Shown here one piece after another: positions 3,270-40,130 of a DNA stretch of 64,000 bases (position 1 is the stretch's first letter; every line of letters starts with the position of its first letter). The stretch is from Mobula hypostoma (Eukaryota): the NCBI RefSeq assembly GCF_963921235.1, contig NC_086097.1, positions 60,948,001-61,012,000 of the forward strand, in the 5' to 3' direction. A program made the position numbers and the translations under genes. The notes beneath the pieces were generated by a model that was not told the DNA's origin, searched no databases, and saw only the letters and a program-made list of their open reading frames with translations.

Positions 3270-3545
3270 GCTATAGGGAATGGAACTGGAGCTGGTTAAG
3301 AGGGGAGCCAGAGTGGGGAATGGACAAAGAGATTACTAGAAGTTAGACTAATTGACGTTCATACTGCCTGGAGGCTAAACAGATAGAATATGATGTGTTG
3401 CTCCTCTAATTTGAGGGTGGCCATTGATTGTCAAGAGTAGTTTGCTAGACTTTCTCTTAAGTGTAAACACAATTGTAGAGGAGGCCAAGGGCCATCATGA
3501 CAGATTGGGAATAGGAAGTAGAATTAAAATGGGTGTCCACCATTC
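3270..3545 (-). mobile_element. Degenerate Penelope-like 3' ORF fragment
   Basis: Aligns by eye to 17010-17180 (gaagttagactaattgacgttcatac...gaatatgatgtgttgctcctctaatttgagggtggc...gtagaggaggcc). Confidence 0.55.
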
Positions 3546-5032: not shown

Positions 5033-6904
5033 TCTACAGGACTAGGCAGGGTTTTGACCATAAATTTTGAAAATTTCTTGACCCCTTCACAGTTTCTGCT
5101 TGAATCATTGAGTTCCTCCAACAAATTGTTTGGTGCAGTAAAAACATTTTTTTACTCTAATTAGTAGCTTTTGAAGCATAATTTTTAATATAAATAAATT
5201 AACAAATGAGGGATTTTAAATTGCATTTATTACACTGGGCTGCATTGTACTAAAGGCAGTGTGCTATCCAAAGCTGGCATCAGGTCATTCGACCACATCT
5301 AAAAGGCACAAATCACGACTGTAATGGAATATTCTACAATGAACACCTCAAGCAGCAGGCAGACCTCAGCTAGAACAGTGCAGGCTTCCTCTCCAGACAG
5401 ACTTTAACAGGAAGCACAGCAGGGGGTTGTGGAGCTTTTCCAGGTACTATTTGGCTTTTGTTTGATTTCAAATGCCTCCACTAGACAGAGGCTCATAAAG
5501 CTATTAAAAACATGGTAATTAAAATACATAAACAATACAAAAATAGCTAACAAAAATTAATAACATTAAACTGATGTCAGTCAACTGACAAGAGCATCCA
5601 AATATCACTAATTCCCCAGGCTGAGAATGCTTACGTGAATGAATGGGGACTCAGCTCCTGTGCCAGGACTGGCAAGACTGCAGCATAATACTTGATGGGG
5701 CCTCTGCTGTGGGACTTCTTCTTAAACCAGCAGCTAGTGTCAGCAGGACCCAGTCCAATGCTTCGGTCTCCCATGAGTGTGCCACTTTTGTTGGGATTAC
5801 TAAATAGCATCAGTGATTGGTTGTTTATAATGTGATGAAACGCTACTGCAGATCTCCCAGTACCTCTCTGTATCCCCTGATGGCTTCACTGACAGCTGAG
5901 CTGAGACCAGAAAACCAGTTATTTGTACATAATTGGAAGCTGCTGGCCACAGAGCTCTCCTTCTACAAAGAATCATCAACTCTTCCCTCGTAGGCCTGAC
6001 CCACATTATTATCACACCTATCTGTAAATCAGAATCACCACGCTAAGATGTCAGTCAACAGGATTGCTTGGAATGCAGTAGAATAACTCAGTGTATTGAT
6101 CTGTGCCAGTTACATTCTTTGGCTGTTCACTCTGCATTAGAACCAAGGGAACAGCCAAGGGCTTTGAAAACTGTACAGGTTGTTACCATTTCCCAAGCTG
6201 TGAAGGTCTGTCAGATTGCAATGCAAATTATTATCAGTTAGTGGAAACTAGTAACTGATCTCACCCCTGTCAGCTGATAGGACTGGAATAAGGTATCCAT
6301 TTTCTTTTACGGCAAGTTTCTGCAGCCACAAGATGGACAAAGTAGATGCCAGGAGCACTGCTGTGTGCACATATGTTTTCAGTAAACTTCAAACTCATCA
6401 TTGCTCTTTGCAAATGTTTTTCAAATCCTTACAGCATGACAATATCAGAAATTAGTATGTGGTTGTACAAACTTCCTGCAGACACAGCCCTGTTATCCGT
6501 GAAGCTTCCCCTTGTTTTGCGATTTTCTTACAGAATTCCATGAGGATAAACCCTCATTTATGGAATCCTGCATTTAGAAAAATATATTATATTTCGATAT
6601 TGTTCAAAATAGTTTACTATTCAGTCTTAGACAATTGTTTTATGGTGTTTATAATAGATTATAGAGTAAACTATCTTGAATTCAATATCCTATAATGTTG
6701 AATCAACTTGTTTTGAAAGACAGACTCAACTAGGCAGCTAACTCACAAGCTGACAGTCAGTTCAAATCAGTCATATTCCTCTCCCACCCATTTCACCTTG
6801 TTCTCAACATTTCTGAGAAGTGCTTTCTCAATTTCACCAATTATCTGTCAAAATGTGAGTTGGATTTCAGATCCTTGTTCATGCAGGGCAGTGGAATTGA
6901 GTCA

Positions 6905-14204: not shown

Positions 14205-15043
14205 CTGGAATGGAAAGCCTCATCCTGGGAGCAGATGCGGTGGAGACGGAGGAACTGGGAATAGGGAATGGCATTTTTGCATGTGGCGGGGTGGGAAGAG
14301 GTATAATCGAGGTAGTTATGAGAGTCAGTGGGCTTGTAGAAGATGTCAGTGGACAGTCTGTCTCCAGAGATGCAGACCGAGAGATCGAGAAGGGGGAGAG
14401 AAGTGTCCGAGATAGACCAAGTGAATTTGAGGGCTAGGTGGAAGTTTGAAGTAAAGTCGGTGAAATTGACGAGCTCAGCATGAGCCCCCATGCCACCCAC
14501 TTCAACTCTGCTTCCTATTCCTATTCGGATATGTCCATACATTTGTCCTCCTCTACTGCCATGATGAGGCTAAACTCAGGTTGGAGGAGCAACACCTCAT
14601 ATACCGTCTAGGTAGTCTCCAGCCCCTTGGTATGAACATAGAATTCTCCAACTTCCGGTAACTCCCTCCCCCTCCCTTCCCTATCCCTATTTCACTCTGC
14701 CCCCTCACCCAGCTGCCTATCACCTCCCTCATGGTTCTGCCTCCTTCTACTACCCATTGTGTTTTCCCCTATTCCTTCTCCACTTTTCCTGCCTATCACC
14801 TCCCTCACCCCTTGATCTTTCCCCTTTCTGGTTTTTTACCTGGAACCTACCAGCCTTCTCCTTCCCACCTTCCTCCCACCTTCTTTATAGGGCCTCTGCC
14901 CCTTCCCTTTTCAGTCTTGATGAATGGTTCCAGCCCGAGATGTTGACTGATCGTTTCCACGGATGCTGCCTGACCTGCTGAGTTCCTCCAGCGTGTTGTG
15001 AGTGTTGCTTTGACCCCAGCATCTGCAGAGTATTTTGTGTTTA
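14205..15043. mobile_element. Penelope-like element fragment with inverted 5' part
   Basis: 14205-14484 encodes an RT C-terminal piece on the minus strand (HAELVNF...QDEAFHSR). 14485-15043 is the GIY-YIG C-terminus, 3' UTR, degenerate hammerhead (14912-14950) and tail on the plus strand. Confidence 0.85.
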
Positions 15044-16676
15044 CTGTATAGCTCAGGATGGACTTTTATTCTCCATTGATTAGGAGACATTAAAGCGTGG
15101 GATATATGATAGATCCAGCAAAAGGGGAACTATGCAGCTACAGATAACATGTGAAATATTGATCACGAGATTATTGGTTATTAGCGGATGCAAAAGATAG
15201 AGTTAAATGTCAGTGAAGTGGAGCGGATGAAGAGAGTTATCCATGATCTTGTTGAATTGTAGAGTAGGCATAAAGGGCTGAATGGCTTACCCTTTCTCCC
15301 ACTCCCGCAATACCCTAGACTTGCCAGATCTCATTATAACTATAACAGGCATCAAGAAGCTTCTCGAGGACTTCCAGCCTAAGAAAGCACCAGGACCTGA
15401 TCAAATACCGGCTTTGATTCTAAAGAGTTATGCTTCCAGTCTAGCTCCCATTTTGCAAGAGATATTCCAGAAGTCTATTGATACTGGGACATTACTGGAC
15501 GATTCGTTGAAAGCAAATGTCGTTCCAATTTATAAGGGCGAGCATACAAATCTGGGAAATTACAGACCAGTTTCACTCACTTCCATCCCTTGTTAAATTC
15601 TTGAACATATTATTCACCGTCACATTATGGACCATCCGGACAGACACAATGCTCTTACTCACCAGCAACATGGATTCCGTCAGGGCAGATCTTGTGACAT
15701 GAAACTTGCAGGGTTGATCAACGACTTAGCAAAGATCCTTGACAATAGAAGCCAAACAGACTTGATCATACTCGACTTCAGTAAGGCATTTGACACGGTC
15801 CCCCACCAGAGGTTGCTACGTAAGCTTGAACATGTGGGCATTAACAACAGCCTTCTACATTGGTTAAACATGTTCCTCATCAACAGACAGCAACGTGTGC
15901 TTCTTGAGGGGCAGAGTCCCCTGAATCTCCAGTAACATCCAGAATGCCCCAGGGGTCTGTGTTGGGACCCTTACTTTTTCTCATTTAAATCAAAGACTTG
16001 CCAAATATAGTCAAGTCCAAAGTCAGACATTTTGCAGATGACTGCATAATCTACCATGAAATAAAAAATGACCAATGTGCTCAGCTGCTGTAAAACGATA
16101 TTGATTCATTATGTCAATGGGAGTCTCAATGGCAAATGTCCTTCATCTCATAAATGTTATGCGATGCATGTCAATCACAAAGTTAAACCAACCAACACGA
16201 CGTATAAAATGAATGGACAAATTCCTGAAACAGTCACCCACCACCCATACCTTGGTGCTGAAATTAGCAAGGATCTTAACTGGGCATGCCACATCAATCA
16301 GATTACAGCCAAAGCAAATAAAATGCTGGGTATCCTGAGAAGAAACCTCTGCTCATGTAGTAAATCCGTCAAGGACATGGCATACAAGACACTCTTCTGT
16401 CCAAAGCTTGAGTATTGCGCGGCCATGTGGGATCCCCATCAAGCTAACAATAAGAAGTCCATGAAAAAAATCCAACACTCGCTTTGTGTTAAATGATTAC
16501 AGCAGGAAATCCAGTGTCACCCACAGGCTCTCTAACTTTCAATGGGAACCACTCAAAAACCGACTTATTAAACTACGAAAACAACAGGAATACTGCAGAT
16601 GCTGGAAATTCAAGCAACATACATCAAAGTTTCTGGTGAACGCAGCAGGCCAAGCAGCATCTATAGGAAGAGGCGC

Positions 16677-16712
16677 AGTCGACGTTTCAGGCCGAGACCC
16701 TTCGTCAGGACT
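16677..16712 (-). ncRNA. Minimal type I hammerhead ribozyme in PLE 3' region
   Basis: Reverse complement reads AGUC-CUGACGA-AGGGUCUCGGCCU-GAAAC-GUC-GACU: complete core, stem I AGUC/GACU, short stem II, loopless palindromic stem III. Confidence 0.8.
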
Positions 16713-17008
16713 AACTGAAGGAAGAGTGAGTAAGGGATTTGAAAGCTGGAGGGGGAGGGGGAGATGCAAAACGATAGGAGAAGACAGGAGGTGGAGGGAT
16801 AGAGCCGAGAGCTGGACAGGTGATAGGCAAAAGGGGATACGAGAGGATCATGGGACAGGAGGTCCGGGAAGAAAGACAAGGTGGGGGGGTGACCCAGAGG
16901 ATGGGCAAGAGGTATATTCAGAGGGACAGAGGGAGAAAAAGGAGAGTGAGAGAAAGAATGTGTGCATAAAAATGAGTAACAGATGGGGTACGAGGGGGAG
17001 GTGGGGCC

Positions 17009-18290
17009 TTAGCGGAAGTTAGAGAAGTCAATGTTCATGCCATCAGGTTGGAGGCTACCCAGATGGAATATAAGGTGTTGTTCCTCCAACCTGAGTGTGG
17101 CTTCATCTTTACAGTAGAGGAGGCCGTGGATAGACATGTCAGAATGGGAATGGGATGTGGAATTAAAATGTGTGGCCACTGGGAGATCCTGCTTTCTCTG
17201 GCGGACAGAGCGTAGATGTTCAGCAAAGCGGTCTCCCAGTCTGCGTCGGGTCTCACCAATATATAAATGGCCACATCGGGAGCACCGGACACAGTATATC
17301 ACCCCAGTCGACTCACAGGTGAAGTGATGCCTCACCTGGAAGGACTGTTTGGGGCCCTGAATGGTGGTAAGGGAGGAAGTGTAAGGGCATGTGTAGCACT
17401 TGTTCCGCTTACACGGATAAGTGCCAGGAGGGAGATCAGTGGGGAGGGATGGGGGGGACGAATGGACAAGGGAGTTGTGTAGGGAGCGATCCCTGCGGAA
17501 TGCAGAGAGAGGGGGGGAGGGAAAGATGTGCTTAGTGGTGGGATCCCGTTGGAGGTGGCGGAAGTTACGGAGAATAATATGTTGGACCCGGAGGCTGGTG
17601 GGGTGATAGGTGAGGACCAGGGGAACCCTATTCCTAGTGGGGTGGTGGGAGGATGGAGTGAGAGCAGATGTACGTGAAATGGGGGAGATGCGTTTAAGAG
17701 CAGAGTTGATAGTGGAGGAAGGGAAGCCCCTTTCTTTAAAAAATGAAGACATCTCCCTCGTCCTAGAATGAAAAGCCTCATCCTGAGAGCAGATGCGGCA
17801 GAGACGGAGGAATTGCGAGAAGGGGATGGCGTTTTTGCAAGAGACAGGGTGAGAAGAGGAATAGTCCAGATAGCTGTGAGAGTCAGTAGGCTTATAGTAG
17901 ACATCAGTGGATAAGCTGTCTCCAGAGACAGAGACAGAAAGATCTAGAAAGGGGAGGGAGGTGTCGGAAATGGACCAGGTAAACTTGAGGGCAGGGTGAA
18001 AGTTGGAGGCAAAGTTAATAAAGTCAACGAGTTCTGCATGCGTGCAGGAAGCAGCGCCAATGCAGTCGTCGATGTAGCGAAGGAAAAGTGGGGGACAGAT
18101 ACCAGAATAGGCACAGAACATGGATTGTTCCACAAACCCAACAAAAAGGCAGGCATAGCTAGGACCCATACGGGTGCCCATAGCTACACCTTTAGTTTGG
18201 AGGAAATGGGAGGAGCAAAAGGAGAAATTATTAAGAGTAAGGACTAATTCCGCTCGACGGAGCAGAGTGGTGGTAGAGGGGAACTGATTA
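17009..18290 (-). pseudogene. 5'-truncated but uninterrupted PLE polyprotein frame: RT C-terminal half, Cys linker, GIY-YIG endonuclease
   Basis: ORF 17009-18181 (390 aa; frame open to the junction) has GVAMGTRMGP, LRYIDD, LPFLDL, TDVYYKPTD, CKRNKCYTC and VIYCVRCSRCGHLYIGET. The Cys-rich linker suggests the Neptune clade. Confidence 0.92.
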
Positions 18291-18291
18291 G

Positions 18292-19248
18292 GACACCTCC
18301 CTCCTCTTTCTAGATCTTTCTGTCTCTATCTCTGGAGACAGCTTATCCACTGATGTCTACTATAAGCCTACTGACTCTCACAGCTATCTGGACTATTCCT
18401 CTTCTCACCCTGTCTCTTGCAAAAACGCCATCCCCTTCTCGCAATTCCTCCGTCTCCACCGCATCTGCTCTCAGGATGAGGCTTTTCATTCTAGGACGAG
18501 GGAGATGTCTTCATTTTTTAAAGAAAGGGGCTTCCCTTCCTCCACTATCAACTCTGCTCTTAAACGCATCTCCCCCATTTCACGTACATCTGCTCTCACT
18601 CCATCCTCCCACCACCCCACTAGGAATAGGGTTCCCCTGGTCCTCACCTACCACCCCACCAGCCTCTGGGTCCAACATATTATTCTCCGTAACTTCCGCC
18701 ACCTCCAACGGGATCCCACCACTAAGCACATCTTTCCCTCCCCCCCTCTCTCTGCATTCCGCAGGGATCGCTCCCTACACAACTCCCTTGTCCATTCGTC
18801 CCCCCCATCCCTCCCCACTGATCTCCCTCCTGGCACTTATCTGTGTAAGCGGAACAAGTGCTACACATGCCCTTACACTTCCTCCCTTACCACCATTCAG
18901 GGCCCCAAACAGTCCTTCCAGGTGAGGCATCACTTCACCTGTGAGTCGACTGGGGTGATATACTGCGTCCGGTGCTCCCGATGTGGCCATTTATATATTG
19001 GTGAGACCCGACGCAGACTGGGAGACCGCTTTGCTGAACATCTATGCTCTGTCCGCCAGAGAAAGCAGGATCTCCCAGTGGCCACACATTTTAATTCCAC
19101 ATCCCATTCCCATTCTGAAATGTCTATCCACGGCCTCCTCTACTGTAAAGATGAAGCCACACTCAGGTTGGAGGAACAACACCTTATATTCCGTCTGGGT
19201 AGCCTCCAACTTGATGGCATGAACATTGACTTCTCTAACTTCCGCTAG
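18292..19248 (+). pseudogene. Second, shorter 5'-truncated PLE frame (RT thumb, linker, GIY-YIG)
   Basis: ORF 18505-19248 (247 aa) differs from the minus-strand copy at six residues. Confidence 0.92.
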
Positions 19249-19543
19249 GCCCCACCTCCCCCTCGTACCCCATCTGTTACTCATTTTCATGCACACGTTC
19301 TTTCTCTCACTCTCCTTTTTCCCCCTCTGTCCCTCTGAATATACCTCTTGCCCACCCCCTGGGTCACCCCCCCACCTTGTCTTTCTTTCCGGACCTCCTG
19401 TCCCATGATCCTCTCGTATCCCCTTTTGCCTATCACCTGTCCAGCTCTCGGCTCTATCCCTCCCCCTCCTGTCTTCTCCTATCATTTTGCATCTCCCCCT
19501 CCCCCTCCAGCTTTCAAATCCCTTACTCACTCTTCCTTCAGTT

Positions 19544-19579
19544 AGTCCTGACGAAGGGTCTCGGCCTGAAACGTCGACT
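19544..19579 (+). ncRNA. Minimal type I hammerhead ribozyme in PLE 3' region
   Basis: agtc ctgacga agggtctcggcct gaaacgtc gact; predicted cleavage after 19575. Confidence 0.8.
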
Positions 19580-21642
19580 GCGCCTCTTCCTATAGATGCT
19601 GCTTGGCCTGCTGCGTTCACCAGCAACTTTGATGTATGTTGTTTATTAAACTACGGTTAAATTTCATTTTCAAAGAAGTTCACAACATCACTCCAAACAT
19701 CCAAATTCGTCACAGGGTTAGTTCGACTCGACAGCAAGCTCGACCTCACATGTTGGAAACTCCTTCATTCAATAAGATTTGCTACCAGAACTCTCTCTAC
19801 CCAAGATCAACAAGAGTGGAATCTTCTGCTGCCAGACCTGCACAGTGTTTCTGACATTAATATTTTTAAAGATAGACTCAATCAAATCGATTTAGGGTAT
19901 CTAGTCAAAAAAGCTTATTTTACAATTTAACTCCCAGGCCGTTCACACTGACTGCGCATTATAACAGCCATCTGGAAGTGCTTACGTAGTACCAAGCAGA
20001 AGTGGAAGGTACTTGGAACTTAGAAAGAATAGAGGGCTATGGGTAAGCCTAGGTAGTTCTGAGGTAAGGACGTATTCAGCACAGCTTTGTGGGCCGAAGG
20101 GCCTGTATTGTGCTGTAAGTTTTCTGTGTTTCTATGTTTCTATTTCAAGGTGAATAGAAAATAAAAGCAAGGAGATAATGCTGAGTCTTTATAAGATACC
20201 TGTCATGCCCCACTTGGAGGATGGTCAACTGTTCTTGGGCCCTTTACCTCTGAAAGGATGTGTGTTGTCATTGGTAAGAGTCCAGAGGAGGTTCACAAGG
20301 ATGATTGCGAGATTGAAGGCGTTAACATATGAGGAGTGCTTTGCAGCTTTGGGCCTGTACTCACTGGAATTTAGAAGAATGTGTATGGATCTCTTTGTAA
20401 TCTACCGAATGTTGAAAGGACTAGATACGATGGATGCAGAGAGGATGTTTCCTATGGTGGAGTAGAACAAGAAGGCACAGCCTCAAAATTGAGGAGTGAC
20501 CTTTTAAAACAGAGGTAAAGAGGAATTTTTTTAGCCAGAGTAGTGAATCTGTGGAACACATATAACGATGCATGAGGAAACAGATGAGAGACGAATTTAC
20601 AAAATTCATTCTTTTCAACTTAGAAGTGCTCTTTGATACTACTGATGGGATGCGGGTGAGGGTTTTGTGCAGTGACAGCTGGAAAACTCTACAGCTAAGC
20701 AGGAAAATCTGCCAGAAAGCAGCTGGATGGTGTCTGACTCCTGCAACAATCGCCTTGCCATGGAGCAACACTGCAAAGACATCCATAATGTTAAGTAACG
20801 TGCCGAGGTGAAATGACTAAAGGCATATGAAGGGCTTTCATCTTATTGATACATACAACCTCTCTCTCACAGACACAAAGGAGCAAATACAAAGAGAAAC
20901 ACACACAGTAGGTACAGTTTGTTTCAGGGATAGGAGGGAGGAATCAGGTCTGTACAAACTGTGTGGAGTTATCCACACTGAGCCAGACAGATAGGCAGAG
21001 AGATTACAAAAGGGGCATTCAGCTATGGAGAAGACAAAAACTGTCAGGCAGCTGCCTTCCACGACATGATTCCTCAGACTCCTTCACAGAGGGTATACAA
21101 GGGCCTGGAGAGTCTGCTTCTCAGAACGAAAGGAAGAAGTGCAGCAGGAGGAGCTGCAGGAAGTGAAGCAGGTGGAGATGGAAGATGAAGAGGCTGGTGA
21201 AAGTTTCCACACTGTCATTGAGCTTGACACCCACTTCAGAGGATCAATAAATGGTAATGTGAGGGAGCAAGGTACGACTTTAGAGGGCAAGAGATATGTG
21301 GGAATTAAGCACCATGAGGCTATGGTCTGACTTGAAATCAAGGGGGAAAAAGGTATAGGGACTGAGAGAAGGGAATCAAAACATTGCTCCTGTCTTGGAG
21401 AATCAATGACGTGTCATGACTAAAATGCCTTGTTTATATAGCTTATGCTAGGTCAGTCTGTTAAAGCACAGAGATGTTTGAAGGAGACCATCTCTACAGC
21501 AGAGCCAAGTTCAATGTTGAATGTAAACTTATTATCTAATTGTGTATACAGTACTTTGCCATATACTACCTTGAGAATGAGGTTGCCAATGGAGCCTCTT
21601 TGGAGACTAAGCAGTTCCTGGCAAAGTCCCAATACTCACCTC

Positions 21643-21802
21643 AACATGCTGGAGGAACTCAGCAGGTCAGGCAGCATCCGTGGAAAAGATCAGTCCGAAA
21701 CGTCGACCGATCTTTTCCACGGATGCTGCCCAACCTGCTAAGTTCCTCCAGTGTGTTGTGAGTGTTGCTTTGACCCAGCATCTGCAGATTATTTTGTGTT
21801 TA
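21643..21802. mobile_element. 160-bp fold-back PLE terminus insertion
   Basis: 21643-21695 pairs with ~21705-21757, followed by the full PLE tail; 14-bp TSD ccaatactcacctc (21629-21642, 21803-21816); same subfamily tail as 14950-15043. Confidence 0.85.
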
Positions 21803-22030
21803 CCAATACTCACCTCCTCACACAGGAGTAAGTGGAACTACAGTGGAGGAAATCAACAGAATCTGTAAGCAGTCAGAATCCATCAGTGTAATTTTGCTCT
21901 GATTTGTAGAACATTCAATCATTGCCACATGGGTGTAGCTCTCTGCTCTTCCAGAGCACAACAGGTCACCATGGCCCTCATCTGTACTTTCAGAGTGGGG
22001 AGAAGTTACTCGTGAGCTGCCACTCTAGAC

Positions 22031-22110
22031 CAGGTTTTCCCAACCTGGGGTCTACTGACCTCTCAGTTCATGGTAAGGGTCCATGGCATAAAAATGTCTG
22101 GGAGTCTCTG
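22031..22110. mobile_element. 80-bp hAT/Charlie-type MITE
   Basis: CAG...CTG ends and a perfect 8-bp TSD ctctagac (22023-22030, 22111-22118), matching the NTCTAGAN Charlie target. Confidence 0.8.
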
Positions 22111-22228
22111 CTCTAGACTCAGGGGCAGAGGAATGGCCTACATAAGATCTTCTGTCAAATGCAGGTGCAGGCACGTGCCCCCCATTTACACATACCTTAT
22201 CTTCATTTGAACCTGCTCTTGGTGCATG

Positions 22229-22835
22229 TGACAGGACACTGAAGGAGGAACCCAATTGCAGACCAAGTACTGTGGGCACTGTGATATTTACTGAGTAGCA
22301 AATTCAGGGGGGTGGGGGGCAATAAAGTCAGCATCAAAGTTCAAGCAAAGATCAAAACATCCAGAGAAATCCAAAAACCAGAATCAGGAAACAGGCAAAG
22401 TCAATATTCAGACAGAGAGTACAATCCTGAGGTACAAAGCAAAGTTAACATCAAAGTTCAGGCAGAGATCAAAATATCCAGAGAAATCCAAAACCCAGAA
22501 TCAGGAAACAGGCAGAGTTGATTTTCAGACCGACATAGTACTGATACAAATGCTGGAAAGGCTCAGGAAAATTCTCTGGCAACAAGTAGAAGAAAACACA
22601 GGACTGAAATACACTGAGCAATAAACAGAGAGGCAGATGATAGGTGGAGCACAATGAGACACAGGTGGCAGCAATACAGGTAATAATGAGAAACAGGTGA
22701 GAGGCGGAGTACTCAGTAATACAGGGGTCGGAATCGAGCAGGAGTGGGGACAGGAGCACATGGCAATACAAAACCACAGACTGACGGGTACGGGGAAACA
22801 CACAAAAATACAGAGTTCAACTGGAGATACTGACA
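22229..22835. mobile_element. Solo LTR with internal 117-bp-period repeat
   Basis: TG...CA ends, 5-bp TSD gcatg (22224-22228, 22836-22840); 22324-22400 is repeated at 22441-22518. Confidence 0.65.
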
Positions 22836-23882
22836 GCATGGGGAAGGGGACTGAAGACAGCAGGGATCAGGCTCCGATGCTTGTAGGCCTGGATTCTAGT
22901 TTAGCAATGAGTTTGCAAGTTGATCTGGAAGTCGAGCAGCCTAAACGCCACCTTGCTCTTCCACTGCTGTCTAGTCAGGTGGCAAAGAGGGTGTATTGTG
23001 AGTAGGTTGAAGACATTGATGACTTCTCTTCTGGTGAACACATGGTCATTTTACACAACCATCTCTTTGGTGGCTCACTCACCTCGCCTCGCCACCAGCA
23101 ATCTGAAAATGTTTACGTCATTGGCCATGGGCAACAGTCTGAAACCAGTGCCTCTAGAGACAGAAGAGCATCAAGGCCAACTGTTCATATTCCAATCTAC
23201 AGTGAGCAGTCTTCCAAAAGGGCATAAGACAAAAGACAAAAGAGCAGAGGTCGGCCATTCGGGTATACTGCAATACAAGAACTCTAGACCCACATGTAAG
23301 GTAACAAATTGTAAGGATTTCTAGAATGTTCCTCCAAAAGAGAGATACTTGATATACTTTAAGATTGGACTGATAAGCCACTTGAGAGCCCATAAGTAGA
23401 TCAATAGAACGAAGACCATCATCCTCGACCTCGAGGGATAGCCACGACGACTTGATATACTTCACTCTTTAAGTTCAGGTGCTTTGCTATCAATCTCTAT
23501 ACAAGCACAACCAAATTTACAAAGCACCTTGTTATTTTTTGTGGCTAATATCATCAGCCAGGTGTAACTGACAGTGCTCTGGCACACACACAGGCATGCC
23601 TGCATGGACTAGCGTGGTTTATTTAGTAAATCACTCAATGGGTATGTGTCCTGTGATGGTGCTCCAGGTTGCCTTTCATCTGAGTGATGCCTTCCCTCTG
23701 AGCACTAATCTTGAATGGCAGCTGTTGCTCCTTTCGGAGATGTGTAGACACAAGCCATTGGAAGCATACCGATCTGCTAGGGTTTATATCTGAAAATCAA
23801 TGCCAGCTGGTACTTCAGACATATTTTTTACACCTACAGTTCTCTTATTAGCACAGCCATTATTATACAACAAATCAAGGCA

Positions 23883-25270
23883 CAGAATCAGAATCAGAAT
23901 CAAGTTTATTCTTGACAGTATGCGCCATGAAATTTGTTAACTTATCAGCAGCAGTTCAATGCAATACATGATAGTATAGAAAGAAAAAATAAATAAGTAA
24001 AACAATTACCGTAAGTATATATATAGAAAATATTTAGATTAAACATAGTGCAAAACAGAAATAATATATATAAAAAAGTGAGATAGTATTCATTGGTTCA
24101 ATATCCATTTAGGAATTGTATGGCAGAGGGGAAGAAGCTGTTCCTGAGTCATTGAGTGTGTGCCTTCAAGCTTGTATACCTCCATCCTGATGGTACCAAT
24201 GAGAGGAAGGCATGTCCTGGATGATGGAGGTCCTCAATAATGGATGTTGCCTTTCTGAGGCACCACTGCTTGAAGATATCTTGGATACTATGGAGGCTAG
24301 TACCCAAGATAAAGCTGACTGATTTTACAACTTTCCGTAGCTTCTTTCAGCCCTCAGCCTCCCAGATTAATACTAGCCATCAAGACTAACTGTATTCATC
24401 CCACTTGCCTGCATTAATGTCATCTATGCCCTGCCCATTCATGTACCTGTTCCAGTCTCTACACCTTCTCTCTAAGTAAATTTATTAACCAATGTTACCA
24501 TATACGACTTCAAGATTCATTTTTTGCAGATCTTACAGGAATAAAAGAAATACAATAGAATTTATGACAAACTATACATAAAGAAAGATTGGCAAACAAC
24601 CAATGTGCAACAGAAGACAAATAGTGCAAAAGAAAAATAAATAATATGGAGAATATCAGCCTCACCAAGTCCTTGTTTTTGATCCAGGTAGTGTGGGACC
24701 TAAGGGTGTTGTGTCTCCTGCCCAATGATAGTAAGCAAGAAGAGTGTATAGCCTATGTAGTGGGTTTCCTTGAAAATGGAGGCAGTTTTCATACTGCAGA
24801 GCTCCATGTACATGTACTCAAGGTGGTGAGGACTTCCCCTGTGATGAACTGGACAGTATCCACCACATTTTACAGGCTGTTCAGTTCCTAGGCATTGGTA
24901 TTTCCATAAACTTTTCTGTTTCTCATTATACCAGGCCATGATACATCTACAGTTAGGATATTCTCCACTGTGAATCTATAGAAGTTTGACAAGATACTCT
25001 GATATGATAACAACACAGAATTTACAGTTACTGACTCTTCTCCATCTGTGGTCCTGTAATGAGGATTGGCTTATAGATCTCTGGCTTCTTCCTCCTGTAG
25101 CCAATAATAAACTCTTTGGTTTTGAGTGAGAGGTTGTTGTGGCACCATTCATCCAGATTTTCGATCTTCCTCTTATATGCCGTTTCACACCACCTTTCAT
25201 TTGGTGCTGTTTTCAGCACTCTTAAATGCATTGGAGCTGTACTTAGCCACACAATCATAGGTATAAAGCA
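23883..25270 (-). mobile_element. Two Rex1/Babar-like LINE 3' fragments
   Basis: (agaatc)n tail at 23885-23901; RT-end peptide YKRKIENLDEWCHNNLSLKTKEFIIGYRRK (ORF 25028-25258). Confidence 0.7.
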
Positions 25271-26189
25271 GGAGTATAAATTCTTATCGGAAGCAGTAAA
25301 ACGTGAAGAGAAAAATTAAAAGAAACCGCAGACAGTTGGTTTCTGAAATAAAAGGTTGCAGACCTAGAACAATGGCTGTTTCCCTTTCTTCAGATGCTGC
25401 CTGAACTGCCACATTTTTCCAGCAATTTTGGTTTTGCAGAGACATTCTGGTCCAATTTCCTGATAAATGTTTATTCTAACAATATTCTAGAAAGTTAATT
25501 GAATTTCTGTGAAGTGAAAACAATTAAGATGTATGACTGTAGTGGAATGCAAAGGGAATGAGAGAAATGTTACCCAGAGAAAGGGGGATAGTTAGTGGGA
25601 CTAAGTTTGTAAACACCATTGTGTAGTCTCCCTGGAGGGAAAAAAAATCCACTTTCTTTTGGAGAGTAAGGGTCTGTATTGGTGGAAAATAGTCAGGCAT
25701 GATCCTTTCCCAGAAGTGATACATAATCTTGGTTTGTATGCATGAGTCCTGTATATTATAACCATTCATCACTGTCCGGTGCACACACAGTTTAACAGCT
25801 ATACCCTCCAGGGTCCAGGCAGAAGGTGTACCACTGCACCACCCTCAGTGATAGATGTCAAAGTGTTCTCAGGGGAACCTCTATAGCTTTGCTACCCTCA
25901 TTGCTTCCTTCATGTGGTTCTCAGGACAAAGTCATACAGGTTTCTCGCTTACTGAACCGTATTAAATGGTCATCAACAGGGTGTTTCCTTGCCTTGAGAT
26001 TCTTTGTTAAAGATGAAATCTTCCAAGCACTTTTGTTTTCAAAACCTGGCAGGGAACTATTCTGTGAGTCAGGTCCAGCAGTGCTGTTTATGTTACGGTA
26101 TTAGAACCTAACAGAATATTATGTTTACCAGAAGAGTTACTCATACATCATATAGCTGAGTTAATTAGAAGATATGGATAATCAAAAGG

Positions 26190-26843
26190 AATGCACACAA
26201 AACGCTGGAGGAACTCAGCATGTCAGGAGGAATCTATGGAGGGGAATGAACAGTCAACAGTTTAGGCCAAGACCCTTTATCAGAACTGGCAAGGAAGGGG
26301 GCAGAAGCCAGAACAGGATGGTGTGAGAGGGGACAGAGTGCAAACTGGCAGGTGAAAGGTGAGAACAGGCAAGGGGTTAGGTGGGTGGATGAAGTAAGAA
26401 GCTGGATGGAACAGATGGAAAAAAATAAAGGTTTGAAGAAGGAATCTGATAGGAGAGGACAGTGGACTATGGGAGAAAGGGAAGGAGGAGGGGAACCAAA
26501 GGAATGTGATGAGTAGGTGAGAAGAAGAGACGGGATGAGGTTAGGAATGGAAATAGAGAGAAGGGGATGGGAAATTCTGAGCATAGGAGAAATTGATTTG
26601 CAGAATTTTTTGTGTTTATGTTGATGAGATCTGTAGAATTTGTTTTGTTTATATACTCCTTCCCCTTCCTCCACATTCTTAGTCTGTCCTCTGTTGCCTT
26701 CCCTTCCAGTCCTGAAGGAGGGTCTCAGCCCAAGACACTGGTTGCTTATTCCTGTACGGGATGCTGCCTGACATGCTGAGTTCCTCCAGCATCTTGTATG
26801 CATGTTGCTCAAGATTTCCAGCATCTGCAGAATCTCATGTGTT
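26190..26843. mobile_element. Older inverted (tails-out) PLE 3'-end dimer
   Basis: Minus arm 26190-~26600, plus arm ~26655-26843, each with a decayed hammerhead; 17-bp TSD tatgga(a/t)-type repeat with one mismatch (26173-26189, 26844-26860). Confidence 0.8.
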
Positions 26844-28721
26844 TATGGATTATCAAAAGGTCTGGAATAAATTCAATCATTTAAACCTTATTAAATGTTT
26901 TTTTTTGACTGAAGAACAAAGGGAACATCCCATTTCTGTAAAACACCAGGATTCCCATACTACTAAGATACTTGACTTTCGGTATTCAGAATCAAATCTC
27001 AGTTGATTTGAACAAAGCTCCCAAACTAAGTATATGGCACACAAAGGCTGAATGGTCACATCTGTTCAACTGGCTTAATCCAAATTGCATTTACATCTTT
27101 ACTGAGACGAAGTGAATTATATTTACTCTGCAATTTTGCAATGTCCTCTTTTGCCTGGGTTGATTGGAGCTATGGATGATACTCGAGAAGTGATGCAATA
27201 ATCTGAACTGGAAATTGTTTGACATTTTATGAATTGTGAAATTAATATTCATCCTTTCTTATCCAAATTCTCTGTAATTGCAAAGTAAAAATAAGACGAG
27301 TTCATACCATTTCCTGCTGATCAGACAGATGTAATGATGGAAAAATATTTTACAGTTGAGCTAACCTCAAACTAATATAATGAATACATAATTGGTGACA
27401 GTGCACACATCTTGTTAATGTTTACCTGGTTCTTTTTTAGCGTTCTAAAAGCTGCTGCTGGAAATCAAATTAATTGTGCCCTTAAGCGTCTCTGTAGTAT
27501 TTGAATGTAATTTTGCTTTTGTCCGCAGTTTGTAAATGAATCCATTGCATGGAGCTAATTTAACTTGCAATTTTTTTTTTCTAAATTCAATACATCTATT
27601 CAGTTTTTTGTTTCAGGAGACTCGTGATTGCAAATTAAGAATTTGGTATTTGCAATGTTTAGTATTTGGACAAGAAACGAACGAGAATGAAAATGGATGA
27701 AAATGTCAAATAAGCTTTACAGAATGTCACCTGCTGAATACTCAATTCTATTAAAATCCATGAAAAATACTGTAGGTCGACTGACTAATACATTTCAGAT
27801 GTGAGGTCAGTGTTAATGGTCACAGTATTATGGAGTTCTGTATATTCCTTTCTGCTATCTCAGAACTGATGATCAGTATTCAGCAAGCAGGCATGGATCA
27901 AGAGGGAAAGGAAGACAAAGAGGAAGGGAAGAAGAAACTAAGGCACCCTACCCTGAACGGGCTGTCCATAATCAACACATTTGACTGCCTTTTGAGTATA
28001 CAGAACTGTGGATTCTCTTTAATCAGCAGCCCGCGTTTAATCCTCTCTCAGTTGCAAGTCATTATTATTGGATATGGACAGATGTCTCCAGTCATAAAAT
28101 GCCTCAGAAAATGTAACAGAGCAGAGCCATGGTGTGTTGAAACAACTGTTTTAGTCCTTGGAATGCTTTGAAGGAGACCTGACATAAGAGGCAGTGTGGT
28201 CTGCTACCTCCTACACTACCTCATCAGCACTTGTGCTATCATAACCAGGAGGAACATGAGTTTAGGTAATTTTGAGAACCTATTCTGCCTGGGTGAACTA
28301 TGAAGAACTAATTTAATTGCAGTTCTAATAGTTACTAACCTAATTGTATCTTATTTGCCTTCCCACTGATCATCACACCTTCTTCATTACAATGCAAAAG
28401 TAACCACAAAATATGCAATCCAGATTAAGTGTACAGTTGAAATAACACCGTATTGCATACATGGATACACTTACAACATATATTCATTGCTTTGTTACCA
28501 TCTATCACATATCCGGTTGCCATGCAGAACTCTCATTACGGCAGTTCCCTTCTGCTGCAGGCTACAGTATGGCAATTAGGAGACTGTTGACATCCATTGG
28601 ACATGACCTCAGGGAAGTTTGAAAAATAAAGTTGATCAGCTCTGGACTCAGAAGATTTGACTGTAGATTGTGACATCCTAGCAGAGGTAGTACCTACATA
28701 GCTGACAAGCAACAGAAAATA

Positions 28722-31425: not shown

Positions 31426-31825
31426 TAAATTCTGCCATTGGAAGCAGTTTGTGTATTCTATAAATGAATAAATAAACAAGCAAACAAACAAACATATAAA
31501 GTATGGTTATACAGTTTATGGTTTTCACTGGTCATTCTTCTTTATGTATGGAAATACTTACAGATTCTTTGAGCTCAATCCTGGCAATCACCTCCAAGAT
31601 TTACAGCATCAAAGCAATGCATTAGAAAAAGGTCCTTTTACTTAGGGTATTATTTTCAGGCCATTATGGTGTAGGAAAGTTCTTATAACTTCCTTTATAA
31701 AGTAAATATTTCCTGAGTAATAATTATAATTATAGGATATGAATATTAATTATAAGGTTACATAATTCAAAGCATATGGTTAGAAAAAGATATTGAATCT
31801 GAAAATTAGAAAGGAGATATTTCCT

Positions 31826-31973
31826 CACTCTTCCTTCAGTTAGTCCTGACGAAGGGTCTCGGCCTGAAACGTCGACTGCGCCTCTTCCTATAGATGCTGC
31901 CTGGCCTGCTGCGTTCACCAGCAACTTTGATGTATGTTGCTTGAATTTCCAGCATCTGCAGAATTCCTGTTGT
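31826..31973 (+). mobile_element. ~150-bp PLE terminus (hammerhead + tail)
   Basis: Near-identical to 19527-19641 plus the full tail; flanked by tatttcct(c/t)act (31818-31829, 31974-31985). Confidence 0.9.
31842..31877 (+). ncRNA. Minimal type I hammerhead ribozyme
   Basis: Identical to 19544-19579. Confidence 0.8.
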
Positions 31974-33013
31974 TATTTCCTTACTTGTCAGCTTTGAGCA
32001 TAATTATTCCTAAATCCATTGCAAAATATTACATTGTACCCATAACTGTTGTAATAGATTGAAATGTATGAACAGTATGCAAAATAAGTACCTCAGGTAA
32101 CTCAGTACATGTGACAATAGTAAAACAATTTACAATTTACATAGTGGGAATGCTTCACATTTCCAATGATCCATTAAAATACAAAAGTCCAATTAGATAT
32201 AGCAGAAGAAGTTCCTCTTCTCACTCCTAACGAGTGATTTTTATGTATTTTCTACCTTATGGGTAAAGCTGACACATGGACATCTGTAAAAGTGAAATCC
32301 ATTCTTTACCTGGGCATACCTGAAGTGTAAGGTGAACGCATCTACTTTAGTCTTTGATAGTATCTGTGAACTTGGTGGAACAAAGAGTCTGAGTCCATAC
32401 TGTATGACTCCATGCTCTAAGGAATTCAAAAGTTCAAAATTTACAACAAAGCATAACAGATTCCAGTATCATTTGATCCTTGCAATTTCATGAGAATAAA
32501 GTCAGTACTTCAAAGTGCTTCTCTTGTCTATGGAAGTGGAGTTAAATATGCAAATTCAGATATGGTTAGTGGTACCCTGTCCTTCCACGTGGTGCAATAT
32601 TAAGTTCTCTGTTGACAGCTTCAATAGAAAACCAATGATATGATATGATGTTAGTGTTATTTAGAACCAACTATTGTCAAAATGTGAGTTTGAAAAGCTA
32701 TTTACAGGGATGGGTCATTATTTTTTCCACCCTATGATACAATTTTGAAGCATAATTTACAATTAAATTAAAGCTTAATCTTGACCCTCACTTCAGTTTC
32801 TGTAAAGTGAGTAACCTATTAATTACAAGCTGTGCTTTCTGAATTACTGACCTACTTGCTAACATACTTGTTGATCGCTTAGCCCACTCAATAACTTCAC
32901 TTTTAAAAGATACTACAGATTTCTTAACTGGGACCAAGAGCCATGTTGAAACAAGGAAAATTGATGCAATAGAATTTGTTGAACCACTGGCTGGATCTTT
33001 CTCTGATGTTATT

Positions 33014-36000
33014 TGAGGAAAGAGGGAAGTATGAGTGTGAGGGCAGCTTGCTGTTCTCGGGGTCGGATGTGGGAGGTCCTGGAGTCTCCTAGCCTCCCGG
33101 ACGTCCACAACTGTGCCAGGTGCGCCGAGCTGCAGTGCCTAAGGGACCGTGTTAGGGAACTGGAGCGGCAGCTCGATGACCTTTGTCTGGTCAGGGAGAG
33201 TGAGGAGTTGATAGAGAGGAGTTACAGGCAGGTGGTCACACCGGGGCCACAGGAGGCAGACAAGTGGGTCACGGTTAGGAGGGGGAAGGGTAAGAGTCAG
33301 GTACTAGAGAGTACCACAGTGGCTGTGCCCCTTGACAATAGGTACTCCTGTTTGAGTACTGTTGTGGGGGACAGCTTACCTGGAGGAAGCAACAGTGGCC
33401 GTGCCTCTGGCACAGAGTCCGGCCCTGTAGCTCAGAAGGGTAGAGAAAGGAAGAGGAGATCAGTAGTAATAGGGGACTCGATAGTAAGGGGGTCAGATAG
33501 GCGATTCTGTGGATGCAGTCGGGAGACCTGGATGGTAGTTTGCCTCCCTGGTGCCAGGGTCCGGGATGTTTCTGATTGTGTCCAAGATATCTTGAAGTGG
33601 GAAGGTGAGGAGCCAGAGGTCGTGGTACATACAGGTACCAATGACATAGGTAGGAAAAGGGAAGAGGTCCTGAAAGGAGAATATAGGGAGTTAGGAAGGG
33701 AGTTGAGAAGAAGGACTGCATAGGTAGTAATCCCGGGATTACTGCATGTGCCACGTGACAGTGAGAGTAGGAATAGAATGAGTTGGAGGATAAAAGTGTG
33801 GTTGAGAGATTGGAGCAGGGGGCAGGGATTCAAGTTTCTGGATTATTGGGACTTCTTTTGGTGCAGGTGTGACCTGTACAAAAAAGACGGGTTGCACTTG
33901 AATCCTAGGGGGACCAATATCCTGGCGGGGAGATTTGCAAAGGCTGCTGGGGAGACTTTAAACTAGAATGGTTGGGGGGTGGGAATAAAAATGAAGAGAC
34001 TAGGAGAGGAGGTTAGTTCACAAATAGAGAAAGCTAATAGAATATGTGTGAGGGAGGATAGGCAGGGGACAGAGGACGGGAGCACTCAGACCGAAGATGT
34101 ACAGGAGAAGGGAGTAAAAGATAACAAAGTTTTTTTTTAGATCATGAGAACACTCAGTACTAATTTATTGTCATTTAGAAATGCATGCATGCATTAAGAA
34201 ATGATACAATGTTCCTCCAGAGTGATATCACAGAAAAACAGGACAAACCAAAGACTAACACTAACAGAACCACGTAATTATAACATATAGTTACAGCAGT
34301 GCAAAACAATATCATAATTTGATAAAGAACAGACCATGGGCACGGAAAAAAAAAAGTCTCAAAGTCCCGAGTCGATTGACTCCCTAAACCCCAGTAGCAG
34401 GCGGCAAAGGGAGACACTCCCTGCCATGAACCTCCAGGCACTGACAACTGCCAATGCATTGGAAGCACCCGACCACAGCCGACACTGAGTCCGTCCGTCA
34501 GAAAACTTCGAGCCTCCGAGCAGCCCCTGCAATACAGCCTCCCGAGCGCCATCCTCTGCTGAGTGCCATCCTCTGCCAAGCGCCTTCGACCTTACCCGGC
34601 CGCCGAAACAAGCAAAGCCGAGGATTCGGGCCTTCTCCTCTGGAGATTCCGGACCACACAGTAACAGCGGCAGCGAAGTTGTTTGTACCATTAGGGATAG
34701 CAGAGAGTAAGAGGTGTAGAGTTTCTTAAATGTACTTATTTTAATGCTGGGAACATTGTAAGAAAGGTGGATGAGTTTAGAGCATGGATTGATACCTAGA
34801 AGTATGATGTTGTAGCTATTAGTGAAACATGGTTGCAGGAGGGTGTGATTGGCAACTAAATATTCCTGGATTTCGTTGCTTCAGGTGTGATAGAATCGGA
34901 GGAGCAAGAGGGGGAGGTGTTGCATTGCCTGTCAGAGAAAATATTACAGTTGTGCTTTGGCAGGATAGATTAGAGGACTCATGTAGGGAGGCTATTTGGG
35001 TGGATTTGAGGAATGGGAAAGGTGTAGTAATGCTTATAGGGGTGCATTATAGACCACTTAATGGGGAGCAAGAATTGGAGGAGCAAATTTGTATGAGATA
35101 GCAGATATTTGTAGTAAGCACAAGGTTGTGATTGTGGGAGATTTTAATTTTCCACACATATTCTGGGAAACCCATTCTGTAAAATGGCTGGATGGTTTGG
35201 AGTCTATAAAATGTGTGCACGATTTTTTTTGCAGCAATACATAGAGGTACCAACTAGAGAAGGGGAAGTGTTGGATCTCCTGTTAGGGAATGAGATAGGG
35301 TAGGTGATGGAGGTATGTGTTGGGGAGCACTTCGGGTCCAGTGATCACAATGCTACTAGTTTCAATATAATTATGGAGAAGGATAGGACTGGACCCAGGG
35401 TTGAGATTTATGATTGGAGAAAGGTTAACTTTGAGGAGGTGTGAAAGGATTTAGAAAGAGTGGATTGGGACAAATTGTTTTATGGGAAGGATGTAATAGA
35501 GAAATGGAGGTCATTTAAAGGTGAAATTTTGAGGGTACAGAATCTTTATGTTCCTGTCAGGTTGAAAGGAAAGGTTAAAAGTTTGAGAGAGCCATGGTTT
35601 TCAAGGGATTTTGGAAACTTGGTTCGGAAAAAGAGAGAGATCTACAATAATATAGGCAGCTTGGAGTAAATGAGGTGCTCAAGGAATGTAAAAAGAATCT
35701 TAAGAAAGAAATTAGAAAAGCTAAAAGAAGATATGAGGTTGCTTTGGCAAGTAAGGTGAAAATAAATCCAAAGGGTTTCTACAGATATATTAATAGCAAA
35801 AGGATAGTGAGGGATAAAATTGGTCCCTTAGAGAATCAGAGTGGATGGCTATGTGCGAAGTCAAAAGAGATGGGGGAGATTTTGAACAATTTCTTTTCTT
35901 CGGTATTCACTAAGGAGAAGGAAGTTGAATTGTGTAAGGTAAGGGAAACAAATAGGGTAGTTATGGAAACTATGATGATTAAAGAAGAAGAAGTACTGGC

Positions 36001-37572
36001 GCTTTTAAGGAATATAAAAGTGGATAAGTCTCTGGGTCCTGACAGAATATTCCCTAGGACTTTGAGGGAAGTTAGTGTGGAGATAGCAGGGGCTCTGACA
36101 GAAATATTTCAGGTGTCATTAGAAACGGGAATGGCGCCGGAGGATTGGCATATTGCTCATGTGGTTCCATTGTTTAAAAAGGGTTCTAAGAGTAAACCTA
36201 GCAATTATCGGCCTGTGAGCTTGACATCAGTGGTGGGTAAATTGATGGAAAGTATTCTTAGAAATGGTATATATAATTATCTGGATAGACAGGGTCTGAT
36301 TAGGAACAGTCAACATGGACTTGTGCGTGGAAGGTCATGTTTGACAAACCTTATTGAATTTTTTGAAGAGGTTACTAGGAAAGTTGACGAGGGTAAAGCG
36401 GTGGATGTGGTCTATATGGACTTCAGTAAGGCCTTTGACAAGGTTCCACACGGAAGATTAGGTAGGAAGGTTCAATCGTTAGGTATTAATATTGAAGTAG
36501 TAAAATGGATTCAGCAGTGGCTGGATGGGAGACACCAGAGAGTAGTGGTGGATAACTGTTTGTCAGATTGGAGGCCGGTGTCTAGTGGTGTGGCTCAGGG
36601 ATCTGTACTGGGTCCAATATTGTTTGTCATATATATTAATGATCTGTATGATGGGGTGGTAAATTGGATGAGGAAGTATGCAGATGATTCTAAGACAGGA
36701 GGATTTGTGGATAATGAAGTAGGTTTTCAAAGCTTGCAGAGAGATTTAGGCCAGTTAGAAGAGTGGGCTGAAAGATGGCAGATGGAGTTTAATGCTGATA
36801 AATGTGAGGTGCTACATTTTGGTAGGACATACATGGTAAATGGTAAGGCATTGAAGAATGCAGTAGAACAGTGGGATCTAGGAATAATGGTGCACAGTTC
36901 CCTGAAGGTGGAATCTCATGTGGATAGGGTGGTGAAGAAAGCTTTTGGTATGCTGGCCTTTATAAATTAGAGCACTGAGTATAGGAGTTGGGATGTAATG
37001 CTGAAATTTTACAGGGCATTGGTAAGGCCAAATTTGGAGAATTGTGTACAGTTCTGGTCACTGAATTATAGGAAAGATGTCAACAAAATCGAGAGAGTAC
37101 ATAGAAGATTTACTAGAATGTTACCTAGGTTTCATCTACTGAGTTACAGAGAAAGGTTGAACAAGTTCGGTCTTTATTCTTTGGAGCATAGAAGGTTGAG
37201 GGGGGACTTGATAAAGCTATTTAAAATTATGAGGGGGATAGATAGAGTTGACATGGATAGGCTTTTTCTGTTGAGAGTGGGGGACATGAGTTGAGAGTTG
37301 AAGGGCAAAAGTTTAGGGGTAACATGAGGGGGAACGTCTTTGCTCAGAGAGTGGTAGCTGTGTGGAACGAGTTTCCAGCAGAAGTGGTTGAAACAGGTTC
37401 CATGTTGTCATTTAAAGTTAAATTGGATAGATATATGGACAGGAAAGGAATGGAGGGTTATTGGCTGAGTGCAGGTCAGTGGGACTATGTGAGATTAAGC
37501 GTTCGGCACAGACTAGAATGGCCGAGATGGCCTGTTTCTGTGCTGTAATTGTTATATGTTTATATGGTTATA
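33014..37572 (+). mobile_element. CR1 LINE, near full length, lightly degraded
   Basis: ORF1 33013-33966 has a Cys-rich/coiled-coil start and SGNH esterase motifs (VIGDS, HTGTND, DGLHLN). ORF2 runs ~34725-37450 and includes the 431-aa RT ORF 35675-36970 (KYADD). (ttatatgg)n-type tail. Confidence 0.95.
34132..34675 (-). mobile_element. Non-autonomous retroposon-like insertion with poly(A) end
   Basis: Interrupts CR1; T-run at the left end; TSD aagtt(t/g)ttt at 34127 and 34676; GC/CpG-rich part and AT-rich 3' part ending gacaataaa...gatctaaaa on the minus strand. Confidence 0.65.
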
Positions 37573-39984: not shown

Positions 39985-40130
39985 AATTTCATCAGTCCTG
40001 ATGAAGAGTCTTGTCCCAAAATATCAACTAGTCACTCTTTTCCATAGATGCTGCCTGGCCTACTGAGTTCTTCCAGCATCTTGTGTGTGTTGCTTGGATT
40101 TCCAGGATCTGCAGACTTTCTTATGTTTGT
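39985..40130 (+). mobile_element. ~145-bp PLE terminus (decayed hammerhead + tail)
   Basis: cagtcctgatgaagagtc...gatgctgcctggcctactgagttc...atctgcagactttcttatgttt. Confidence 0.75.

Follow-up and report, generated by a model that had tools for sequence, protein, structure and literature searches.

How does a retroelement come to lie in a genome as two inverted arms whose 3′ ends both point outward, when only one of these ends is complete? A stretch of 64,000 nt from Mobula hypostoma (contig NC_086097.1, positions 60,948,001 to 61,012,000 of the forward strand), referred to here as the window and numbered from its first letter, raises this question with three head-to-head insertions of Penelope-like elements (PLEs) of 3065, 160 and 654 bp, all with their 3′ ends outward. 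In each, one arm carries the full 3′ end (ccagcatctgcag...tgttt) and the other arm is shorter. This lopsided two-armed shape is the published PLE insertion unit and is already known. After weighing the alternatives, we consider it probable, with some reserve, that these head-to-head insertions of an endonuclease-bearing (EN+) PLE, with their one-sided tail, were made by reverse transcription primed on both target strands. The sequence displays one target-site duplication (TSD) around both arms, 5′ truncation of both arms, a one-sided tail, an open reading frame (ORF) with reverse transcriptase (RT) and GIY-YIG parts, and a hammerhead motif. The parts of the three insertions are as follows (pLTR, pseudo-long terminal repeat).

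16565..16577, insertion 1, left TSD, 13 bp, 77% AT
16578..18291, minus strand, insertion 1, long-tail arm: 5′-truncated PLE with the C-terminal part of the RT, linker, GIY-YIG, pLTR and a tail of 36-37 nt at 16578-16614
16677..16712, minus strand, minimal hammerhead motif predicted in the pLTR of the long arm, from the core pattern only and with no Rfam match
18292..19642, plus strand, insertion 1, short arm: starts further 3′ in the ORF and ends after ...tgtatgttg
19544..19579, plus strand, minimal hammerhead motif predicted in the short arm, where cleavage is predicted after 19575, leaving 67 nt to the short end
19643..19655, insertion 1, right TSD, exact repeat of the left TSD
21629..21642, insertion 2, left TSD, 14 bp, 50% AT; like its flanks, it is similar to the tail region of the element itself
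21643..21695, minus strand, insertion 2, short arm, whose 5′ end coincides with the predicted hammerhead cut position
21696..21802, plus strand, insertion 2, long arm, with a 45-nt tail at 21758-21802
21803..21816, insertion 2, right TSD, exact repeat of the left TSD
26173..26189, insertion 3, left TSD, 17 bp, one mismatch
26190..26598, minus strand, insertion 3, short arm, with PLE homology to ~26356 and the remainder assigned by position and composition only
26596..26652, plus strand, centre of insertion 3, two copies of the tail 3′ end, ~24 nt each, in the sense of the long arm
26655..26843, plus strand, insertion 3, long arm, with a 40-nt tail at 26804-26843
26844..26860, insertion 3, right TSD, 16/17 match to the left TSD

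The duplications around the three insertions are far above chance. They measure 13 bp (exact, 16565/19643), 14 bp (exact, 21629/21803) and 17 bp (one mismatch, 26173/26844); among 3000 random position pairs set at the same spacings (±15 nt slop), a single pair produced an exact repeat of ≥13, and likewise only one in 3000 a 17-bp repeat with ≤1 mismatch. Repeat and arm alignments thereby bore out a preliminary description of this DNA, which had reported three tails-out insertions of these lengths with TSDs of 13, 14 and 17 bp. The TSDs of insertions 1 and 3 and of a solo copy are 71-77% AT, against 59% for the window; among the three, insertion 2 combines the lowest AT share in its TSD with the greatest tail length. 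The tails of insertions 1-3 are 72-76% identical to one another, and elsewhere in the window each has a relative that comes closer, at 97.5%, 91% and 82%. The earlier assignment to three PLE subfamilies is therefore reasonable.

The positions of the ends carry most of the argument. The one-sided tails of insertions 1, 2 and 3 are 37 nt (36 if base 19642 belongs to the element), 45 nt and 40 nt long, in agreement with the ~37-45 nt by which one arm had been said to fall short. With the conserved GATGCTGC anchor as zero, the distances to the short ends of insertions 1, 2 and 3 are 48, 36 and 45 nt, and those to five long ends 81-84 nt, the pattern having missed the long arm of insertion 2. By these distances, the long end is tightly placed, whereas the short end is spread over a zone of ~10-12 nt. 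The preliminary description had proposed a fixed second priming site about 40 nt inside the RNA 3′ end. A second start fits both the sequence and the PAc element discussed below, but "fixed" overstates the case because the three short ends span ~10-12 nt; nor is a second RT start new, since it was reported in vitro for PAc (PMC11167929). In an end census, a profile built from six tail copies and run over the window returned nine strong ends (six long, three short) and two old remnants, and the short ends were confined to the three TSD-flanked pairs. Relative to the predicted hammerhead cut, long ends lie 98-103 nt and short ends 53-67 nt downstream. RNA folding of the six tails gave no stable structure (z -0.28 to 0.83), and we therefore claim no conserved stem-loop at the start zone.

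Judged by its sequence, the element is an EN+ PLE, and its linker places it with Neptune or Nematis. Both insertion 1 arms encode the 3′ part of the ORF, which has a YIDD motif (residue 72), a CKRNKCYTC linker (CX4CxxC) and GIY-YIG. CKRNKCYTC fits the CX2-5CxxC linker between RT and EN, which is found in Neptune and Nematis and is absent from Penelope/Poseidon (PMC8557442). PF01541 (GIY-YIG, Pfam) matched the C-terminus at E 3.7e-4 and 8.5e-5, and two cysteines stand between GIY and YIG (CCHH motif): VIYCVRCSRCGHLYIG. Histidines downstream of these cysteines are visible in the translation, as read by eye with no reference alignment. The Pfam search of the ORF gave no RT match and the PDB sequence search 0 matches; among ESM Atlas neighbours at 0.96, a share of members carry RVT_1 and GIY-YIG. 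Three copies of the insertion 1 subfamily are predicted to carry in their pLTR a minimal hammerhead (CTGANGA..GAAA..TC core with closing stems) of a type described in PMC4209133, while the Rfam search found no hammerhead. The marks of an EN+ PLE that were found are thus the C-terminal GIY-YIG, the CCHH cysteines, the hammerhead motif and the inverted copy with one-sided tail and TSD. All copies of the element in the window are 5′-truncated, and no full-length pLTR-ORF-pLTR copy is among them.

The shape of the insertions agrees with the PLE literature. Arkhipova et al. 2013 (PMC3846280) described the typical Penelope insert as completed by an adjacent inverted pLTR, with a 9-bp TSD and with a 31-bp tail as an option on one inverted pLTR. 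Both Pen2a_Av of Adineta vaga (PMC3846280) and Fig. 2 of Craig et al. 2021 (PMC8557442) present, like the insertions here, an adjacent inverted 5′-truncated copy within one TSD; the tail of the canonical EN+ unit is often at one end only, again as here. That unit has a TSD of 9-10 bp and a tail of 30-40 bp, compared with 13-17 bp and 36-45 nt in the window, where one of the three tails (45 nt) is slightly above the published range. The host also differs: the repeat content here looks like that of a cartilaginous fish. The preliminary description had listed a short tail on only one end of Penelope as known; this is indeed published, but the record was understated, for the inverted arm, the one-sided tail and the TSD were described jointly (PMC3846280, PMC8557442).

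A biochemical parallel is PAc, the Poseidon element of Anolis carolinensis, for which Frangieh et al. 2024 (PMC11167929) reported in vitro two adjacent RT starts that bracket the tail. PAc starts at ORF +111-118, its hammerhead cut is at +26, and the 30-40 bp tail lies between the two starts; the protein, a predicted dimer, cuts and extends both target strands, prefers AT-rich targets and starts at a non-homologous site with no need for target homology (PMC11167929). PAc resembles the element described here in having its tail downstream of the hammerhead, a similar end geometry and AT-rich targets, whereas it belongs to the Penelope/Poseidon clade and has AC-rich sense starts, unlike an element with a CX2-5CxxC linker and GU-rich sense ends. 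This GU-rich composition is seen on the sense strand at both the long and the short end (16578-16614 and other tails), and its contrast with the AC-rich ends of PAc is possibly a clade difference.

On this basis, we suggest a putative mechanism. A staggered cut would be made in the target, and both nicked strands would prime reverse transcription. One cDNA would start at the distal site and the other within a zone ~36-45 nt upstream; the two truncated cDNAs would then join head to head at the centre, often via short matches, and repair of the staggered cut would leave the TSD of 13-17 bp. Pairing between primer and RNA would be at most an occasional extra, which in insertion 2 may shift the start ~10 nt upstream. 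In favour of this mechanism are the TSDs far above chance, the confinement of short ends to the TSD-flanked pairs, the AT-rich TSDs of insertions 1 and 3 and of the solo copy, and the parallel between the end geometry here and that of PAc, which cleaves and extends both strands. Cutting and extension of both strands, two starts bracketing the tail and independence from homology were demonstrated in vitro for PAc only, and would hold here by analogy. The distal end, too, is probably internal to the RNA, as in PAc.

Several points weigh against priming from both strands. The TSD-flanked pairs number only three, too few for strict coupling, and if ends were drawn independently from six long and three short ones, an unbroken run of three long/short pairs would be expected in ~9% of cases. 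PAc showed no strand difference in its start site (PMC11167929) and so leaves the pairing of long with short, rather than long with long, unexplained. The transfer of the mechanism is moreover by analogy, because PAc is a Poseidon element with AC-rich ends and the element here is Neptune-type and GU-rich. An additional inverted pair, which the preliminary description had missed along with the two short tail-end pieces inside insertion 3, also departs from the pattern.

14205..15044, fourth inverted pair: the minus-strand arm (14205-14482) stops inside the ORF, and the plus-strand arm (14477-15044) has the full tail

A TSD was looked for around this pair and none was found. Its arms do not overlap on the element reference (251-529 vs 1098-1714), with 6 nt common at the centre. 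The earlier claim that the architecture recurs as a rule thus holds for three of the four inverted pairs in the window, which have one TSD around both arms and a one-sided tail, but not for the fourth, which ends inside the ORF and has no TSD. We take the latter to be either an L1-like twin-priming product or the result of a later deletion. It is set in LINE-like sequence, and the LINE-like part is not directly resumed on its right. In L1 twin priming, the second target strand primes cDNA internally, which leaves an inverted, truncated piece within one TSD; that piece is an upstream, non-overlapping part, and its priming site is variable. In contrast to these non-overlapping pieces, both arms of insertions 1-3 copy the same 3′ region with full overlap, and the layout of LINE-1 twin priming (PMC2837659) is seen only in the TSD-less fourth pair.

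Public sequence data speak to the ends as well. Contig sets from public runs matched to one insertion 1 arm comprised 100853 and 83131 contigs, and loose contig ends piled up at the long end, 16579 (156 and 136 contigs, with A-rich flanks). Weighing further against our reading, none of the 12 loose-end rows listed, out of 841, was at a short end, and contig depth over the tail was not reduced, in a depth profile that is confounded. The family is therefore abundant and its long end sharp, whereas for a single-base short end these contigs are uninformative or mildly against. Two public raw-read runs gave 0 reads matched to the arm, and tail-motif scans gave 0 loci in metagenome, genome and viral contigs.

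A serious rival, rather unlikely in our judgement, is fold-back: a single event of target-primed reverse transcription would start from the distal site, the cDNA 3′ end would fold back or self-prime and be copied, and the copying would stop, or the endonuclease would resolve the product, ~40 nt before the end. The idea is older in print, where both self-priming (PMC3846280) and resolution by the EN (PMC8557442) have been proposed, and strict long/short asymmetry follows naturally from fold-back. Insertions 1 and 2 fit both models. In both, the short arm is nested in the long arm, starting inside its span (spacers of 326 and 9 nt), which fold-back predicts equally and which thus counts against priming from both strands. 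The arms of insertion 1 are 98.4% identical in the inverted alignment (1329 identities, 22 mismatches), 19 of the 22 differences being transitions and 9 lying at CpG. At 16653 and 16731, the two arms have bases in common that the 97.5%-identical solo copy lacks; we conclude that they came from one source, which suits fold-back and priming from both strands alike. The arms of insertion 2 match in inverted orientation over 54 nt at 89% identity, and a 4/5 inverted match seen at the turn when the 14.9-kb copy is the reference suits fold-back. At 21690-21705, this match accounts for the turn equally well as a start at the hammerhead cut.

Insertion 3 is harder to reconcile with fold-back, since its arms are only 76% identical (109 identities, 35 mismatches, 10 gap columns) and two extra tail-end pieces lie between them. 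Such an arm identity within a 16/17 TSD has P ~0.06 if the arms began identical, a weak hint that two templates may have been used. The scores of the ~24-nt tail-end copies were matched by 5-15 of 3000 random sites (true tails included), and the stacked pieces are possibly repeated restarts or template jumps. The short arm also reaches at least ~19 nt further 5′ than the long arm, but 168 and 815 of 1000 shuffles did as well as the far 5′ extension, which is thus not significant and provides no firm evidence against fold-back. Fold-back is further opposed by the fourth pair, whose arms cover non-overlapping parts of the element, and by PAc, whose tail boundaries are RT start sites (PMC11167929).

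The preliminary description had also hinted at pairing between target and RNA, on the ground that the target at 21630 (caatactcac) resembles the internal site (caacactcac). The resemblance is there (9/10), though its first base is 3 nt away from the junction. At the short junctions of insertions 1, 2 and 3, the exact microhomology is 0, 1 and 0 nt. The best 10-mer target matches (offset 0-4 nt) are 6, 9 and 6; out of 20000 random sites, 6672, 15 and 6475 scored as high, so that insertion 2 stands above chance and insertions 1 and 3 are at background. Moreover, the empty site of insertion 2 is like the element's own tail over ~48 columns (34 identities, 7 mismatches, 8 gaps), a likeness equalled at 2 of 3000 random sites and in 3 of 5000 shuffled sequences, in a site-by-tail test of 20 comparisons; the other three of the four TSD-bearing sites were at background. 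The target of insertion 2 is tail-like on both sides of the cut (21594-21642 and 21817-21851). The six-copy tail profile found nothing on this site after excision of insertion 2 (E up to 10), and a decayed older PLE was thus not detected there. Because the match stands 3 nt away from the junction and two of the three insertions lack it, pairing is not the rule, and we rejected it as a general mechanism. That target-RNA pairing primes the short arm at one fixed internal RNA site is accordingly very unlikely, and PAc, which starts at a non-homologous site (PMC11167929), argues against it too. Pairing that shifts the start of insertion 2 ~10 nt upstream would fit its tail, the longest, as a single case.

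Finally, we give almost no credence to the view that the arms inserted independently or were rearranged afterwards (nested insertion, gene conversion, deletion), with incidental asymmetry: the family is extremely abundant, the fourth pair has no TSD and insertion 2 may have gone into a decayed old tail, but a single TSD surrounds both arms in three of the four pairs, the short ends fall within ~12 nt across three subfamilies, and the canonical PLE insertion unit has been described in fly, rotifer and other animals.

Two solo copies accompany the inverted pairs in the window.

31821..31973, plus strand, solo copy of the insertion 1 subfamily, 153 bp, 5′-truncated, with the full tail and a TSD of 8-12 bp
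39988..40128, plus strand, solo old copy with the full tail and no clear TSD

The first copy, of a young subfamily, lies with its TSD in 31821-31981, and the TSD overlaps the 5′ bases of the element. Decayed remnants of older PLE tails and an ORF-end fragment lie at 25351-25428, 5044-5130 and 3339-3540. The ORF translations at 46979-47458 and 49366-49929, and at 35651-36970, look like what we take to be Tc1/mariner transposase fragments and a CR1/L2-type RT.

We tentatively extend priming from both strands to a stricter form, which is conceivable but not what we would expect. A PLE dimer might act in strict order, with the distal site serving whichever target strand is nicked first and the upstream zone serving the other, so that TSD-flanked inverted pairs would be obligately long/short; chance pairing of the target 3′ end with the upstream zone, as in insertion 2, would favour a site and shift the start upstream by the paired length, and repeated restarts at the distal site would leave the ~24-nt pieces seen in insertion 3. 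No statement of an obligate long/short coupling rule was found in the literature searched, outside of which key older papers lie. The available part of Frangieh et al. 2024 (PMC11167929) offers no model of inverted pairs or of long/short coupling and whatever follows first-strand synthesis is left unvalidated there; Craig et al. 2021 (PMC8557442) regard the formation of inverted PLE structures as undefined in its steps, and the accessible portion of a retrozyme preprint contains nothing on tails or inverted pairs.

As they stand, the insertions add three cases, from a Neptune-type element, to an insertion shape that has been described before. Their importance would rise modestly if counts across the whole genome revealed that long and short arms are obligately coupled, or that the start shifts with pairing. 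In a genome with so many copies, the undefined steps of PLE integration, those after first-strand synthesis and those of inversion, would be testable by counting.

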